Source: a virus. Taken from it: a stretch of 64,000 bases of DNA. The position numbers were made by a program, and so were the translations under genes. Each line of letters begins with the position of its first letter. Position 1 is the stretch's first letter. This document shows, piece after piece, positions 7,201-58,135 of this stretch. Location: positions 32,001 through 96,000 of the IMG/VR virus record IMGVR_UViG_3300043470_000217. The stretch is one strand, 5' to 3'. The notes beneath the pieces were generated by a model that worked only from the letters and a program-made list of their open reading frames with translations, had not been told where the DNA came from and did not search any database.

Positions 7201-9852
7201 AGCAAAAGAGCTAGTATAAAAGATAAAGAAGAGTTTAAAGAGTTAGATAACATCAAAGGTGAAAATGGTGTAGATGCACTTACACAAAAAGCTTTAAAGC
7301 GATTGTATAGTGAGTTAGCAGATATGCAATATAAATCTCCTACAGATGATTACTTTAGTGTTTTCAATACTAAGTTAGAGGCTATTGATCAAACTAAACT
7401 TGCAAACTTCTCTGTATCAGAAATCAACATAGATAACTATGATAACTTTTTAAAGCCTGGTTTCTTATCTAAGTATTTTAAAGCTAGTCCTGAGTTTAAA
7501 GAATGGTTTTTAGCAAACCACATTATGACTGAGAGGTATAACTATAAGACTAAGAAAGAAGAGAGAGTTTATGAAAGATTATATGTTTGGAGTGTAACTC
7601 AACCAGCTAATGAAGAAGATTACAATACTTATAAGTACAATGATGTAAATCCATCTACCGGTGAGATTACTGAAGTTACTTTAGATAAAATACCAAAGAT
7701 AGACTTCTACAGAAGAGCTGTTAAAAAACAATACAGAACCGGCTATAATAAAGCAACTGATAAAGTAGAGCGTCAAGTAGGTGTACATGTAGATAATAGA
7801 GGTAACTGGTTACCACGTACAATGGCACAAGGTGCTAAAGATGATTCCTATATTAACAAAGCTTACTTTGATCTTAAAAAGAATAGTCCGGCAAAGGCAA
7901 AAGTCCTTGATACAATTGTAAAGTATACATTGTTATTCCAGGAAGATAAAACTAAGTATGGAAAACTGTACTTAGATGTACCTAGATTCAGAAAGCTTAA
8001 GAGCGAATTAGTAGGTGGTAGTTTAAATAGAAGTGCTGCTAAAGTTAAAACCTTTATCAAACAAGTAAAAGATTCTGTTACTAAAACAGAGGATGATTTT
8101 GATCAAGGCTTTAACTATGAAGATTCATTTAACTTAGTAAGAGCAGACATGTTTGATGAAGAGATTTCTTCTATTCCAGTAAAAGGATTGTATAAGTTAG
8201 ATGTAGATCAGGTATCATTAAATGTACCATACTCTATGTTGCAGTACATGTTCTCATTAGAACACCAGAAAAAGCTTATTGAATTAAATCCAATAGCTCA
8301 AGCTTTACAGAAAGTTGTATCTAATCCTGAAAATACTATTAAAGATACTTCTAAGGTAAATGGATACAACTGGGCAACTAATAATATCAAATCTTATCTA
8401 CCTAAGAAAGGAAAGAATGTAAGAGCTGAAGCAATTAATACTTTAATTGAAAGAGAGTTTAAAGGTCAAACTAGAGTTGGTTGGTTATCAGAACCAACTA
8501 GCTTAAGTAAAGCTGTAGATATTTTACAATCACAGTCTACTTTTGCAATGTTTGCATTTAATGTTTTACCATCAGCATTTAAAAACTTTGGTGGTGCTGT
8601 TACACAGATGATCATTGAATCAGGTGGTGGTAAGTATCTTAACAAGCGTTCTTACTTACAAGGTCAGAGTAGAGCATTAAAAATAATGACTGATATCTCA
8701 GCTAATATTTATAATCCTGGTGAGAAAAGTATTGATTATCAATTAGTTGAGATCTTTGATCCTATTAAAGGTAGATTCCAAGAACGTTTTGGTGCTGAGT
8801 TTGGTAGATCAATTGGTACTGATTTAGCTGATAGTCTTATGCTAGGTGCTGGTAAGAGTAGATCTAATGGTGTATCTACTGCGCCTAGAAAGTGGTTAGA
8901 AAATGAAGGAACACTTTCTTTGTTTGCCGGTATGATGATCTTTAAAAAAGTACCACAGACTATTAATGGCCAAACTAATATGATCAATTACATAGATGCT
9001 TGGGAAAAAGATGGTCAGGGAATTATTAAATTAAAACCAGGTATTGATGAGACTTATGCTCCGGGTGGTGAAGAGTTTAAATTAATGCGTAATAGCATAC
9101 AGGAAACTAGTAACAACCTACAAGGTGCTTATTCATTAATGGATAAAGTAATGCTTGATAGATATGCAGTATGGCGGATGTTCTCAGGACTAAGACGTTT
9201 CTTTACAAGGATGTTTGTAAACAGATTTAGTCCTTTAAGATATTCTCAGCGTACTGGTAATATGACTGAAGGTTATTATAGATCATTTGCTATATTCTTA
9301 AAAGACTTTGTTTCTAGAGCTTCTTCTGGTAACATGTATATGACTGATAATGAAACCTATGCAACTAAGAAAGTATTAACTGAAGGTATAAGTATTACAT
9401 TACTAGCTCTTATGATTGCTTATCTATTTGGATATGATCCAGATGATGAAGATAGATTTGAAAAGATGCGTGAAAGAAGTGGTGATTTATTATCAGATGA
9501 CTTTAATGCCGGTGGTTGGTTAGTTAACCACGGTTTAGTTGTAGCACTTGGAACAAGACAGGAAACTATTACTTTCTTAAATCCTAGGGAATACGTTGGT
9601 TTAGTTTACTCAGGAGGCGCTCCAACATTGGGCCCTGTAGTAGATAAGTATAAAGACGTAGGTGTAAACTTAATGCACTTACTTACTAATGATAACCGTG
9701 CTTATTATACTAGAGATGTAGGACCTTATTCTTGGCAAAAAGAAAATGCACCTAAAATCTTCAATGATCTTGGATATTTATTTGGATTCACTGGTAATCA
9801 AGTTGATCCAGTTAAAGCTTTGAAAGGTGTAGAGTTCCAAACTAGAAGATAA
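4294..9852 (+). CDS. Giant virion ejection/cargo protein with zincin-like HExxH domain
   Basis: About 1850 aa, largely helical, VLHEYAH motif near the N-terminus, hydrophobic C-terminal segment, adjacent to vRNAP as in crAss-like phages. ATG at 4294 (MSKC). Confidence 0.7.
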   Translation: MSKCRLDIQNDVLKTYKKALAKEVGQFLSPTDSLSTFYVNAEGNTQVGSAAIAKAVLELNQYWRTNMAEFITWDGDSRVFVNPPKYVVDHYWEVYKKNNDITEESPEYYRVGDEDFLNSLFPSVEIQETAKAQEIATKFANNLAAQTGINYKMISPEKASELTKDTTAPWNGEPAFYYQDTVYFIENGFKLNQVLHEYAHPIVRSLYLNNYDLFNNLYNQIISTEEGAAIVNTVTELYPEYAITDPNFAQEVFVRALEQAAVQKANKISSSTGFNSFISNLLFAIKQLIRKVFGKGVKVEKLSVDTTLDQLADMLVGENFILTTEVITPQDLVLYSKNNKTLYADLDKVNTDALVQVVNRFFSNSKSQLSRIRTNKNYSDFVDTITTESGRSILKDIVDNLRVAETTTVDDKVKKFKDDIDKREKQIVSLVRSSLQTDVLLDRIVDKLSDMQSMSDTKEVINQTFYYDILLRNWNKFIQETINGLTDSGLRTDSSLFALFSRMSKKAEQADRLINNIYKKGVGGILTEQIEPLAKNVDKYFTDKLDLLKSKNAPQREIEKVKAEWERLKLNRATIDDYLSGMRGDVNALSAYVESFASSPDPIISSFSVFLDNAYTDVELKAKKNKDDFLNDLLPALKEAGYSDKNISELMQELTFEEEVVIRDRDGNAKTFKKLVLLNPFKAFEKVISQFQFDIEDAKRLGDIEKARLLNKQFRQFSRDYMHDEFVPEFYTKEKIYDSELGSVIYQRKQDILADIADIDQRVFEDLTEEDAFEEKKILWKKYSQLASLRDEAGKLKTGDELEMAKIEKQYRDESRKFYEWKEITGLFEFKLNQFKQDLLDQGLTVDSEEFKDNVNDWIDANTRVSIKSEFYDKKQAILTKIKAITDTLPANVASKVEQGKLWEELIDIVIGFRDDDGQPVGSEMSEERLKRIKELQEEILKIKNNMATFSGLSKLQFERYLELAKLIKSKRASIKDKEEFKELDNIKGENGVDALTQKALKRLYSELADMQYKSPTDDYFSVFNTKLEAIDQTKLANFSVSEINIDNYDNFLKPGFLSKYFKASPEFKEWFLANHIMTERYNYKTKKEERVYERLYVWSVTQPANEEDYNTYKYNDVNPSTGEITEVTLDKIPKIDFYRRAVKKQYRTGYNKATDKVERQVGVHVDNRGNWLPRTMAQGAKDDSYINKAYFDLKKNSPAKAKVLDTIVKYTLLFQEDKTKYGKLYLDVPRFRKLKSELVGGSLNRSAAKVKTFIKQVKDSVTKTEDDFDQGFNYEDSFNLVRADMFDEEISSIPVKGLYKLDVDQVSLNVPYSMLQYMFSLEHQKKLIELNPIAQALQKVVSNPENTIKDTSKVNGYNWATNNIKSYLPKKGKNVRAEAINTLIEREFKGQTRVGWLSEPTSLSKAVDILQSQSTFAMFAFNVLPSAFKNFGGAVTQMIIESGGGKYLNKRSYLQGQSRALKIMTDISANIYNPGEKSIDYQLVEIFDPIKGRFQERFGAEFGRSIGTDLADSLMLGAGKSRSNGVSTAPRKWLENEGTLSLFAGMMIFKKVPQTINGQTNMINYIDAWEKDGQGIIKLKPGIDETYAPGGEEFKLMRNSIQETSNNLQGAYSLMDKVMLDRYAVWRMFSGLRRFFTRMFVNRFSPLRYSQRTGNMTEGYYRSFAIFLKDFVSRASSGNMYMTDNETYATKKVLTEGISITLLALMIAYLFGYDPDDEDRFEKMRERSGDLLSDDFNAGGWLVNHGLVVALGTRQETITFLNPREYVGLVYSGGAPTLGPVVDKYKDVGVNLMHLLTNDNRAYYTRDVGPYSWQKENAPKIFNDLGYLFGFTGNQVDPVKALKGVEFQTRR

Positions 9853-51253: not shown

Positions 51254-51748
51254 TTATTTTGCGGCTCTAAGAGCACTTAGGTAGGAAGGATCAGATGCAT
51301 AAACGCCATCAATTTTACGTAGATACTTGTTCTGTATATCAATATAACATCTTACATTGTCTCTGTAAGTCTTATACTTTGCATATACACCATGTTTGCC
51401 ATCTACATACTTACACTTATGGTAAGTTAATCCAAACATGTTTTTTGCTTGCATACCAACATTACTTTTACCAATGCTAGATTCAATCTTAGCTTGGGCA
51501 ACAGCAACAGCCGGTAATACACAACCATACTTCACTAATTCTGCAGTTAATCCAGAATCAGTAAGCTTCATATCTTCCACAGTCTTTTCAATTGTAACTG
51601 TATCTTTAACAACAGATACAATCTCAGTACTTAAATCTAACATAGATGTAAATAACAAGATCACATTCAGTGATAAAGAAGCAATTAATAGTTTCTTGTA
51701 AGATCTGCTCTTACTTAAACTTAAATCATCATTTACTTTTAATATCAT
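51254..51748 (-). CDS. Membrane-anchored glucosaminidase (GH73-like)
   Basis: TM helix, then AVAQAKIES...NMFGL...YAKY...YASDPSY. Confidence 0.75.
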   Translation of the reverse strand: MILKVNDDLSLSKSRSYKKLLIASLSLNVILLFTSMLDLSTEIVSVVKDTVTIEKTVEDMKLTDSGLTAELVKYGCVLPAVAVAQAKIESSIGKSNVGMQAKNMFGLTYHKCKYVDGKHGVYAKYKTYRDNVRCYIDIQNKYLRKIDGVYASDPSYLSALRAAK

Positions 51749-51930
51749 AACTTTCTTTTTAAAAAAGGGAGTATCCGTATATACTCCCTATGTGTCAAAC
51801 TATGCTAAACTAATAGAACACCAATACTTATACGGAGTATTGGTATTTTACCATTGTAATTCTTTGTCCCTGCTTCACCATTAAACCAATAATAGTGCCA
51901 TTCTGGGATACTGTACCAATAATTTTACCT

Positions 51931-53359: not shown

Positions 53360-53435
53360 ATGTGGTTTTTTAGTTGATTGTTTAATAAAAAAAGTCCTGG
53401 AAGCAGATCTTACGGTATGCAACCAGGAACATTTG

Positions 53436-53529
53436 TAACAGAGACAGGATTTGAACCTGTGTAAAGTTTACAAGCTTTAACTACCACATTCATTAGTGGT
53501 ATGCGTTATACCTATTCCGCCACTCTGTT
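53436..53529 (-). ncRNA. tRNA-like element 1 (Leu-type scaffold, aberrant anticodon arm)
   Basis: Acceptor AACAGAG/CTCTGTT+A; D arm TGGCGGAATAGGTATAACGC; T arm ACAGG-TTCAAAT-CCTGT; anticodon stem 6 bp with 8-nt loop TAATGAAT. Confidence 0.75.
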
Positions 53530-53580: not shown

Positions 53581-53586
53581 CTTTCG

Positions 53587-53679
53587 TAGTCAGGACAGGA
53601 CTCGAACCTGTAAGCTTTTTGCCTTAACAAAGGTATCGGACAGAGAATCCAAAAGCGTCTACCATTCCGCCACCTGACT
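53587..53679 (-). ncRNA. tRNA-like element 2
   Basis: Acceptor AGTCAGG/CCTGACT+A; D arm TGGCGGAATGGTAGACGC; T arm ACAGG-TTCGAGT-CCTGT; displaced TTGGA-TTCTCTG-TCCGA arm plus an extra hairpin. Confidence 0.75.
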
Positions 53680-53786
53680 ATTTAATGTTATTATTGAGTT
53701 TACCCACTTATAAATCATAAGCGTTTGCAACCACTTATGGTATTCCTCATTTATTCCGTTCTTAGCTGTGAGTCTAATAACATTTG

Positions 53787-53859
53787 TACCAGAGACAGGA
53801 CTTGAACCTGTATCAATGCAGAGAGCTACTCCACAGCGTCACCATTGCGCCACTCTGGT
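53787..53859 (-). ncRNA. tRNA-like element 3
   Basis: Acceptor ACCAGAG/CTCTGGT+A; D arm TGGCGCAATGGTGACGC; T arm ACAGG-TTCAAGT-CCTGT; non-canonical loop GTAGCTC (G32, U37). Confidence 0.7.
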
Positions 53860-56380: not shown

Positions 56381-56381
56381 G

Positions 56382-56467
56382 TACTACTAGTGGGAATCGA
56401 ACCCACACTGACATTGCTGTCAACAGGATTTTAAGTCCTGCGCGTCTACCTATTCCGCCATAGTAGT
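56382..56467 (-). tRNA. trnL: tRNA-Leu (anticodon UAA)
   Basis: Acceptor ACTACTA/TAGTAGT+A; CAGGA-CTTAAAA-TCCTG; long variable arm; GTGGG-TTCGATT-CCCAC; promoter TATATTTG at 56475-56482. Confidence 0.93.
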
Positions 56468-56629: not shown

Positions 56630-56857
56630 TTAATTCTCAGTGATAACATATACTAACCACATAAACAAAGTAATGATAGTCATTACAAAGGCTACATTGC
56701 CTAGAATATCCTGGAAACAACTAACAAAAGTGTTATGCCCCATAAGAGCACCCAGAGAAGCTAATAAACCGGCTATGATGATAGAACTCACCACAGTAAA
56801 AACAACAGGAACCACTATCATCAATAGTGACTTTCCAAGATAGATTATATATTTCAT
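56630..56857 (-). CDS. Small two-TM membrane protein
   Basis: Hydrophobic ORF. Confidence 0.5.
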   Translation of the reverse strand: MKYIIYLGKSLLMIVVPVVFTVVSSIIIAGLLASLGALMGHNTFVSCFQDILGNVAFVMTIITLFMWLVYVITEN

Positions 56858-57069
56858 ATTAGTTTAGTTAATAAATCCAGTAATACTAGTAGGTATAATA
56901 CCCTTAAGTATAAGAAGCAGTTTAGACACATGCTTAGGTGTTTGTAAGGGATGACTTCAACTACCTTACTTCAATGGCTCTGTTTTGGTATACTGTATTA
57001 CTACAGCGGAACAAACCTATCCATCATTTCCGCACTTAAGGCTTTGGAACTTGCCTATATGATTTAGTT

Positions 57070-57234
57070 ACTCCACTCTGCATTCAATTGTAATAGAAAG
57101 CCAATAACACAAAAATGTTATCCGTTTGGGGCAACTAATTGTTCACCTATAAATAGGTTTAGTGTCTGTCCATGCTTTATATCTCGCTACTACAATTGCT
57201 ATCCCTTGTGAAGATAGTTATGATGCATTAAAGT
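57070..57234 (-). ncRNA. Twister-ribozyme-like element (type P1) with large P5 insertion
   Basis: P1 ACUU/GAGU, UAA, P2 UGCA/UGCA, P4 CUAUC/GAUAG with loop UUCACAAGG, GCAGAGUG (T1 CAC/GUG), 12-bp P5. Confidence 0.65.
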
Positions 57235-57600
57235 TGGTTAGGTTCTCGTACTAACCCCTATAACTTGCTTTTACTTGTTATAGACGCAGTGGCTTCACTA
57301 TGGTTTACACCATTTCCCCCCACTGTTGTTATCTTTTAGCCATATAATGGCCCATTCGTCCCCACCTAATCCCACTTCTTACCAGTTTGTGATAAGTGTA
57401 GTTTTGATGAGAAGGTTGTTTGTCACTCTCTCTCACACCCTTACAACTGTCCACTGTATTATACAGTTTGTCATGAAAAAGTTAAACATTATGACAATTG
57501 TCTCAAGAATTACGGGGTTTATAGTTTCAAAAGTTAAACAAAACTATTTTTCCTCTCTTACTAGAAGTTTGATTATATAGTGGTTTCTATATAAAAGAAA

Positions 57601-57630
57601 AAAAAAGAGATAGGTGTAACCCTATCTCTT
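57601..57630 (-). terminator. Intrinsic terminator
   Basis: AAGAGATAGG/CCTATCTCTT stem plus U-tract. Confidence 0.75.
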
Positions 57631-57643
57631 AATGGTGAATTAA

Positions 57644-58135
57644 CTATTCATCTGATTCATCAGTGAATGGTGTTTCACCTTCAGCAACAGGTTCTTCCTG
57701 CGGTGTAACCGTGGAAGTATCTGCTTGCTGTGGCACGCTGGCAGGTTCTGCAACAGGTGCAGCAACTGTAGTTGACAGTCCAAGGGACGCCATCAACTGC
57801 TGTGCAGCCAACTGTGCAGTAGCCTGAGCCAAGAGACCTGTGCCTAAACTGTCAATCGCAGATTGCATTTTGGCCACAGTGTCAAACTTGGCGTACACAC
57901 GGCTGCTGTCATAGTTCCACTCCAGTGTAACTACTGACGGCATGAAAGCGTCTGTGGTTTTCCACAAGGGCTTTCCCGTGTCTTCATCGTGCTGAAGGTA
58001 ATCACCCTGTGATTCTTCATAAGCCTCAAGTTCTTGAGGTGTTGAAGCGGAAACAAGGTAAACTCTTACGAGTTTGCCTTTTTGGAGGCCTTTGGATGCA
58101 CGATAAGTGCGTGCAAATTTTGCTTTAATGCTCAT
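57644..58135 (-). CDS. Hypothetical protein, likely first early gene
   Basis: Visibly higher GC than neighbours; Pro/Ala/acidic tail; follows the repeated motifs at 58171-58410. Confidence 0.65.
   Translation of the reverse strand: MSIKAKFARTYRASKGLQKGKLVRVYLVSASTPQELEAYEESQGDYLQHDEDTGKPLWKTTDAFMPSVVTLEWNYDSSRVYAKFDTVAKMQSAIDSLGTGLLAQATAQLAAQQLMASLGLSTTVAAPVAEPASVPQQADTSTVTPQEEPVAEGETPFTDESDE

Follow-up and report, generated by a model that had tools for sequence, protein, structure and literature searches.

The minus strand of the analysed window carries, at positions 57234 to 57070, a 165-nt intergenic element of a lake phage that, judged by comparison of sequences, is very probably a self-cleaving ribozyme of the twister fold from an uncatalogued phage subfamily. 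The form found in this subfamily is twister type P1, without P3 and with a P5 arm. The window, the whole 64,000-nt stretch that was analysed, corresponds to bases 32001 to 96000 of a 125,557-bp viral record. The large terminase is 26–28% identical to terminases of crAss-like phages, and by its sequence the source genome (125.6 kb) is assigned to a distantly crAss-like freshwater phage; the ribozyme stretch is present in lake and freshwater metagenomes. The region is AT-rich (GC 0.35), and no ORF of 50 aa or more overlaps 57070–57234 on either strand. The segments of the element, in 5′ to 3′ order, are as follows.

57234–57231, minus strand: 5′ strand of P1, ACUU, paired with GAGU at 57073–57070 (4 bp, one U·G); from the sequence and the MFE fold
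57230–57228, minus strand: 5′ side of L1, UAA, aligned in relatives to the UAA of the Rfam twister-P1 consensus
57227–57224, minus strand: 5′ strand of P2, UGCA; from the sequence and the MFE fold
57223–57222, minus strand: UC after the 5′ strand of P2, with U57223 as the fifth P2 pair (with A57083) and C57222 as the putative T2 base
57221–57218, minus strand: AUAA; from the sequence
57217–57213, minus strand: 5′ strand of P4, CUAUC; from the sequence, the MFE fold and covariation
57212–57204, minus strand: L4 loop, UUCACAAGG, 9 nt, with the 5′ strand of T1, CAC, at 57208–57210
57203–57199, minus strand: 3′ strand of P4, GAUAG, the P4 hairpin as a whole covering 57199–57217
57198–57187 with 57096–57085, minus strand: P5 stem, 12 bp with one G-U, enclosing 90 nt; from the MFE fold and covariation
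57084–57083, minus strand: AA, of which A57084 is unpaired and A57083 pairs with U57223
57082–57079, minus strand: 3′ strand of P2, UGCA; from the sequence and covariation
57078–57074, minus strand: 3′ side of L1, GAGUG, aligned to GAGGG of the consensus, with G57078 at the place of the catalytic guanine
57076–57074, minus strand: 3′ strand of T1, GUG, complementary to CAC of L4
57073–57070, minus strand: 3′ strand of P1, GAGU; from the sequence, the fold and alignment A1 (see below)

An initial annotation, made from the letters of the window, had listed these segments, and every one of them was found on the minus strand at the same coordinates. The MFE fold of 57245 to 57060 (−40.4 kcal/mol) reproduced P1, P2, P4 and the 12-bp P5 exactly; its z score relative to shuffled sequences was −2.02, with 3 of 200 shuffles equally good, and the plus strand of the ribozyme stretch showed no excess structure (z 0.04). 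The minus-strand orientation assigned earlier is supported. When P5 was folded alone, z was −3.19 and two inner hairpins formed in the 90-nt insert. The P5 stem of 12 bp with one G-U pair, also described in the initial annotation, is a genuine helix that covaries in relatives.

Loci of relatives were collected through the two flanking proteins. In blastn against these loci, the intergenic region matched in two blocks only, which start exactly at 57234 and end at 57070 or 57068, and the insert between them is not conserved. A search pattern that fixed part of the 5′ half, with no constraint on P4, the T1 triplet, P1 or any of the 3′ half, matched at least 119 viral contigs. P4 was fully paired (5 bp) in 107 of the 110 distinct matches listed, through 18 different fully paired strand combinations, and in 100 of the same 110 the L4 triplet could pair fully with the three bases that follow the first TGCAGA downstream. 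The T1 combinations in the matches listed were CCC/GGG (61), CAC/GUG (20) and CCA/UGG (16), with CCU/AGG, CUC/GAG and UCC/GGG found once each; UCC/GGA also occurs in relatives, and the third T1 pair changed from C-G to U-A in a divergent copy (L013:7451). The CAC/GUG pseudoknot that had been read from the window is supported, being replaced by other complementary triplets in relatives.

Covariation statistics were calculated on an alignment of 44 copies (A1). In A1, 90.9% of the cells were paired, compared with 77.4% in shuffles (none of 500 reached the observed value), and pairing dropped to 32–49% when the partners were slid. All five pairs of P4 and two of the three T1 pairs covary, and 100% of cells are paired in P4, in T1 and in P2; compensation of A-U by G-C in P2 was seen in L070 and L056. 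For P5 (helices 6 and 7 of the alignment), 10 of 12 pairs changed on both sides. P1 showed both-sided changes in four of six columns, but only 75.8% of its cells were paired, and it had two or fewer consecutive pairs in 33 of the 110 matches listed, the window having four. P1 is described as dispensable for twister cleavage in PMC6154101.

A covariance model built from A1 (R1) found a single copy, both when run on the window and when run on the whole genome (84.6 bits), and gave 114 and 36 matches in the relatives' loci, divergent copies with compensatory changes being among them. The only other R1 hit in the window (51734–51848, plus strand; 14.4 bits, E 0.086) has neither P2 nor T1 and was rejected as noise. 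The window has the bases of the catalytic places, A57229 and G57078, and both are invariant in A1. Both had been fixed by the search pattern and the regular expression, and the invariance of several core bases is partly circular because the search pattern itself fixed them. The divergent copies that R1 found independently keep both bases, and copies that vary at every helix still keep the A after the scissile U, the G after P2 and the AAG of L4.

These comparisons bear on the alternatives that AT-rich intergenic DNA resembles a twister by chance, or that the element acts at the DNA level, for example as a protein-binding or recombination site. The base composition (GC 0.35) and the presence or absence of whole ribozyme units at homologous sites fit these alternatives, but folding is strand-specific, and G-U pairs and compensatory changes in P4, T1, P2 and P5 extend across more than 100 copies. 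Moreover, three true chance-like matches were recognised among the 110 listed (L027, L029 and L082), and in these P4 is unpaired and the 3′ half is missing. The covariation contradicts this explanation, which we regard as extremely improbable.

Four loci in the relatives hold derivatives in which the 5′ half is replaced (L096:2421-2543, L070:9876-10019, L015:2430-2583 and L024:8417-8573). In all four, the 5′ strands of P2 and P4 are swapped for a common short motif, while L4, P5 and the 3′ half remain and T1 still matches; R1 scored them at 26–39 bits. These derivatives may have decayed from full copies or may represent a split form.

The junction next to P2 departs from the reading given in the initial annotation, in which T2 was a variant formed by UC and GG. 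One half of that reading, C57222-G57205, is plausible and is the counterpart of the consensus C-G pair: neither position has a variant, no base other than C was seen at the C57222 position among the viral contigs, and this C aligns with the C of the consensus 'GC'. C57222 presumably pairs with G57205 in T2. The other half, U57223-G57204, is doubtful, since U57223 covaries with A57083. The position of U57223 and the base before the 3′ strand of P2 form a Watson-Crick pair in 96 of 103 copies (C-G in 65, U-A in 31) and a U-G pair in one; in the other six, the base before the 3′ strand of P2 is T. Among these six, at least L112 has a 1-nt insertion, and L081 and L104 rest on a 3′ half that mismatches their own T1. 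In A1, 30 copies have C-G and 13 have U-A as this fifth P2 pair, and no copy leaves it unpaired. The two states occur on 10 and 15 different T1/P4 backgrounds, and hence the covariation does not stem from one inherited change. At the G57204 position, A replaces G in L070, which has U at the position of U57223, and in L130, which has C there; G33 of L4 is nearly invariant. L4 ends with AAGG in the window versus AAGC in the consensus. The simplest reading of the junction is a fifth P2 pair with a shortened or rearranged T2; a base triple could alternatively be formed.

Relationship to the twister class was examined with the Rfam models. Neither the window nor the whole genome gave a twister hit for the ribozyme stretch at the gathering score, and a scan of 56800–57500 at E ≤ 10 gave no hit to twister or twister-sister (RF02681), the sole match being a chance-level Corona_pk3. 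The copy in L009 gave no twister hit, and none of the copies in 24 relatives' loci reached the gathering score of twister-P1 (RF03160, clan CL00120), which is 67.2 bits. The initial annotation had proposed a twister-P1 search with the insert taken out. Natural relatives with a short P5 were used as a stand-in, and their scores stayed far below the cut-off: L097 scored 20.2 bits (E 0.031) with twister-P1 as its top hit, and L023 scored 18.8 bits (E 0.11) with twister-P1 ranking second. Both hits were full-length, and these copies, with T1 CCC/GGG, align to the model at P1, UAA, P2, GAGGG and the 3′ strand of P1. The low scores are explained by the layout, because the model expects a P3 hairpin and a P4 with the loop GUCCCAAGCC followed by gUAAA, whereas the phage subfamily lacks P3, continues from P4 into P5 and leaves only two bases between P5 and P2.

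A further link to recognised twisters came from a bacterial genome in the phylum of G001, in which a 53-nt twister-P1 match (L138:1501-1553) scored 48.1 bits, below the cut-off; it was the one sub-threshold twister-P1 match in 150 scored genomes of one phylum, and none scored above the cut-off. Like the phage element it has no P3, and it has the same letters as the window in the 5′ strand of P1, UAA, the 3′ strand of P2 and the CAC/GUG T1. It differs in one base of the 3′ strand of P1 (AAGU, versus GAGU in the window), in the absence of P5 (53 nt in total), in its T2, which consists of A-U plus C-G with an L4 ending in GU, and in its location in a cellular genome. The hits of the short-P5 relatives and the letters in common with this bacterial copy indicate that the phage subfamily is homologous to recognised twisters.

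The type-P1 layout claimed in the initial annotation was recovered, with P1, P2 and P4 in class order around an internal loop that carries UAA on its 5′ side. Of the class features, the helix order with UAA, T1, and the A and G at the catalytic places were found, and the Rfam gathering score was not reached. The phage element resembles twister P1 (RF03160) in the order P1-UAA-P2-[T2 base]-P4(L4)-P5-P2′-GA+T1′-P1′, in a T1 that joins L4 to the 3′ side of L1, in the AAG of L4, in its UAA and GAGNG loops, and in carrying P5 at the site of the optional P5 of the class. In contrast, the phage subfamily scores far under the gathering score or not at all; it has no P3, whereas P3 is present in 78% of annotated twisters, and its P5 is obligatory with inserts of up to 312 nt, whereas P5 is present in 1% (both figures as given in excerpts of PMC6154101). 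It also has the fifth P2 pair, an L4 ending in GG instead of GC and an L4 of 9 nt.

These departures could be taken to mean that the conserved twister-like fold no longer cleaves, the altered T2 and the large P5 having disabled catalysis, and that it serves as a protein-binding or stabilising 5′ element. The T2 region differs from the consensus, the Rfam scores are far under the cut-off, and relatives hold derivatives, possibly decayed, without the 5′ half. However, the A and G of the catalytic places and the AAG of L4 are kept though every helix varies, and a non-catalytic scaffold would not need the catalytic-place bases; in addition, relatives have certified self-cleaving ribozymes from two other classes at the same loci (see below). 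We consider loss of cleavage improbable.

For the preferred reading, a cleaving twister, homology with the Rfam twister-P1 consensus predicts a cut between U57230 and A57229. In the rice twister, the U6/A7 bond is cleaved and G45 is the general base, according to parts of PMC6154101; by alignment, U6/A7 would correspond to U57230/A57229 and G45 to G57078. The element would be transcribed together with the minus-strand genes, and the RNA would fold into P1, P2 and P4, with the P5 insert on an arm pointing away from the ribozyme core. L4 would dock on the 3′ side of the P1-P2 internal loop, forming T1, and on the C following P2, forming T2. The 2′-OH of U57230 would then attack its own 3′ phosphate, G57078 and A57229 acting, by homology, as the catalytic bases. 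The upstream RNA would end with ...ACUUU and a 2′,3′-cyclic phosphate, and the downstream RNA would start with a 5′-OH and keep the folded ribozyme body as its 5′ end. As for the role, we give an even chance to the view that the cut separates transcript segments of an RNA-rich early region, independently of host RNases. Judged by position only, processing of the transcript ahead of the small ORF and the tRNAs is plausible. Circularisation, in which the ribozyme-made ends would be joined by RtcB, was also considered and was dropped for this locus, as no RtcB gene was found in the phage and the window has a single copy.

The initial annotation had further suggested that the insert could be a regulatory domain. 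P5 was present in all 103 copies with both halves among the matches listed, with a length of 12–312 nt (median 83 nt; 12–16 nt in four copies). Outside the P5 stem, close relatives whose cores are almost identical have inserts that resemble each other in neither sequence nor length. Such inserts speak against a conserved sensor or ligand-sensing domain, and we regard the insert as a fast-changing add-on instead of a conserved switch. Clustering of the inserts of the 103 copies yielded 13 pairs only. The window insert was similar to that of L014 alone (96.5% identity), and the P4 helices of these two copies differ at four of five pairs; L022 and L096 carry the same insert on cores of different types. 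The same insert on different cores suggests module exchange between copies.

Another explanation would make the ribozyme a carrier only, the product being the variable P5 RNA that is released from, or displayed on, the twister scaffold. The constant presence of P5, compared with 1% of known twisters in the excerpts of PMC6154101, the structure in the inserts (z −3.19) and the identical inserts on different cores (window and L014; L022 and L096) fit this explanation. Yet no insert sequence is common to most of the 103 copies, with 13 pairs clustering, and the four copies with a P5 of 12–16 nt show that cargo is not required; we judge it decidedly unlikely that the ribozyme is only a carrier. 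A related view also seems unlikely to us, in which phages would gain, lose and shuffle twister units as self-contained cassettes whose obligatory P5 arm displays fast-evolving small RNAs. The small RNAs, for example host- or defence-directed ones, would in that case stand on a nuclease-resistant ribozyme scaffold with a 5′-OH end. It is compatible with the data because a type-B unit is precisely absent at one site (see below), the same insert occurs on different cores, and the inserts are structured.

The neighbouring features of the window are as follows.

57644–58135, minus strand: upstream co-oriented ORF of 163 aa; from the ORF list
57605–57630, minus strand: terminator-like hairpin closely following the 163-aa ORF, with a 10-bp stem and then a T run; from a consensus scan only
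56630–56857, minus strand: downstream co-oriented ORF of 75 aa, 212 nt past the ribozyme
56381–56467: tRNA-Leu(UAA), after the 75-aa ORF

Searches of the flanking ORFs against Pfam and PHROGs returned nothing informative. In L007 and L008, twister copies have homologs of the 75-aa ORF downstream. Among the matches listed, 100 of 103 copies are outside same-strand ORFs and co-oriented with their neighbours, at a median of 208 nt past the upstream co-oriented ORF and 138 nt ahead of the next. A same-strand tRNA is downstream in 38 of the 103 copies, mostly at 600–3000 nt, and upstream in none. The promoter motif TAnnTTTG was examined and discarded for lack of a consistent link, being within 600 nt upstream in only 23 of the 103 copies. 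Relatives often have two or three twister copies per locus, 200–900 nt apart. Rfam-certified ribozymes of two other classes lie upstream of twister-type copies on the same strand: Pistol at about 160–370 nt in 4 of 14 loci, and Hatchet at about 1.6 kb in 2 of 10 loci.

L016:3922-3985, same strand as the twister copy: Pistol ribozyme; from Rfam
L002:4808-4869, same strand as the twister copy: Pistol ribozyme; from Rfam
L075:5714-5776, same strand as the twister copy: Pistol ribozyme; from Rfam
L007:2904-2965, same strand as the twister copy: Pistol ribozyme; from Rfam
L115:2079-2215, same strand as the twister copy: Hatchet ribozyme; from Rfam
L097:8518-8654, same strand as the twister copy: Hatchet ribozyme; from Rfam

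Clustering of ribozyme classes near phage genes has been described (PMC6765202). Rfam scans of the window detected neither Pistol nor Hatchet. The sequence that precedes the Pistol of L002 is shared with the window at about 57360–57320, where Pistol itself was undetected.

On the minus strand, the window at 56915–56945 corresponds to sites in L002 (5185-5420) and L006 (5790-6030) where these relatives hold a second copy, designated type B (CCA/UGG). The window has the flanks of this site but lacks the unit in its entirety: about 118 nt, from the 5′ strand to the 3′ strand of P1, are precisely missing. This precise absence of a whole unit points to ribozyme units being cassettes that are gained or lost.

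Twister has been reviewed as a class (PMC6154101 and PMC6765202), and its biological role is described as open (PMC6765202). Pistol (RF02679) and Hatchet (RF02678) resemble the phage twisters in being self-cleaving and associated with phage genes (PMC6154101, in part; PMC6765202), whereas their folds are unrelated to twister. The HDV-like theta ribozymes of gut phages are likewise a phage-specific subfamily of a small ribozyme class in tRNA-rich regions, as described in the accessible text of PMC10879173; they differ in fold and, according to the same text, adjoin viral tRNAs, whereas the nearest same-strand tRNA of the phage twisters is usually hundreds to thousands of nucleotides downstream. 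A similar P4 loop sequence in twister and twister-sister (RF02681) is reported in PMC6154101. The same review describes twister-sister as incapable of the long-range pseudoknot, whereas covariation proves T1 in the phage twisters.

The search pattern gave seven matches in 185,579 species, each represented by a single genome, and R1 confirmed three of them. These three are on contigs of 45–86 kb in metagenome-assembled genomes, two of them Chitinophagaceae, and may be phage contigs. The subfamily is large, found almost only on phage contigs and very rare in cellular genomes. The intergenic region had no blastn match among GenBank phages, and we found no description of this subfamily in the literature, although the supplements of Roth et al. 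2014 and Weinberg et al. 2015 may list members. As the Rfam twister models miss a whole phage lineage, phage annotations undercount ribozymes. The usefulness of the subfamily lies in its size (at least 119 viral contigs), its near absence from cells and its fixed placement, with copies sitting between co-oriented genes of the early region, upstream of tRNAs and next to Pistol or Hatchet; these three properties make the role of twister testable in a defined setting. The subfamily also provides natural data on the changes that the twister fold tolerates at the T2/P2 junction and in the P5 arm.

Contigs from four metatranscriptome runs, which derive from relatives 90–99% alike, cover 56950–57095 (X15), 57071–57213 (X17) and 57069–57190 (X18). 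No piece spans 57229/57230, and contigs cannot show RNA ends; 57254–57619 is without cover in all four runs, and the contig ends do not coincide. As DNA can be present in RNA libraries, these contigs carry no conclusion on transcription or cleavage.

Other RNA-like features were observed near the element and in relatives. The minus strand at 57336–57650, a stretch of about 300 nt that separates the terminator-like hairpin from the ribozyme, is non-coding and 82.6% identical to L002:4483-4794; it contains a TAGTTTTG motif at 57546–57539 and may be another RNA gene or a leader. The RNA islands of relatives include a tmRNA gene (L007:6164-6518) and 'freshwater-1' RNAs (L096:71-132 and L016:8602-8663), neither of which was detected in the window at the Rfam gathering score. 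In L009, a tRNA-like sequence (7910-7995) lies about 6 nt past a twister copy; it was not called by ARAGORN, and its Rfam match is weak and tRNA-Sec-like. Three tRNA-like genes with oversized or odd anticodon arms are present on the minus strand of the window (53435–53529, 53586–53679 and 53786–53859), one with a 4-base anticodon according to ARAGORN, and with anticodon-region insertions of 8, 28 and 13 nt according to Rfam.
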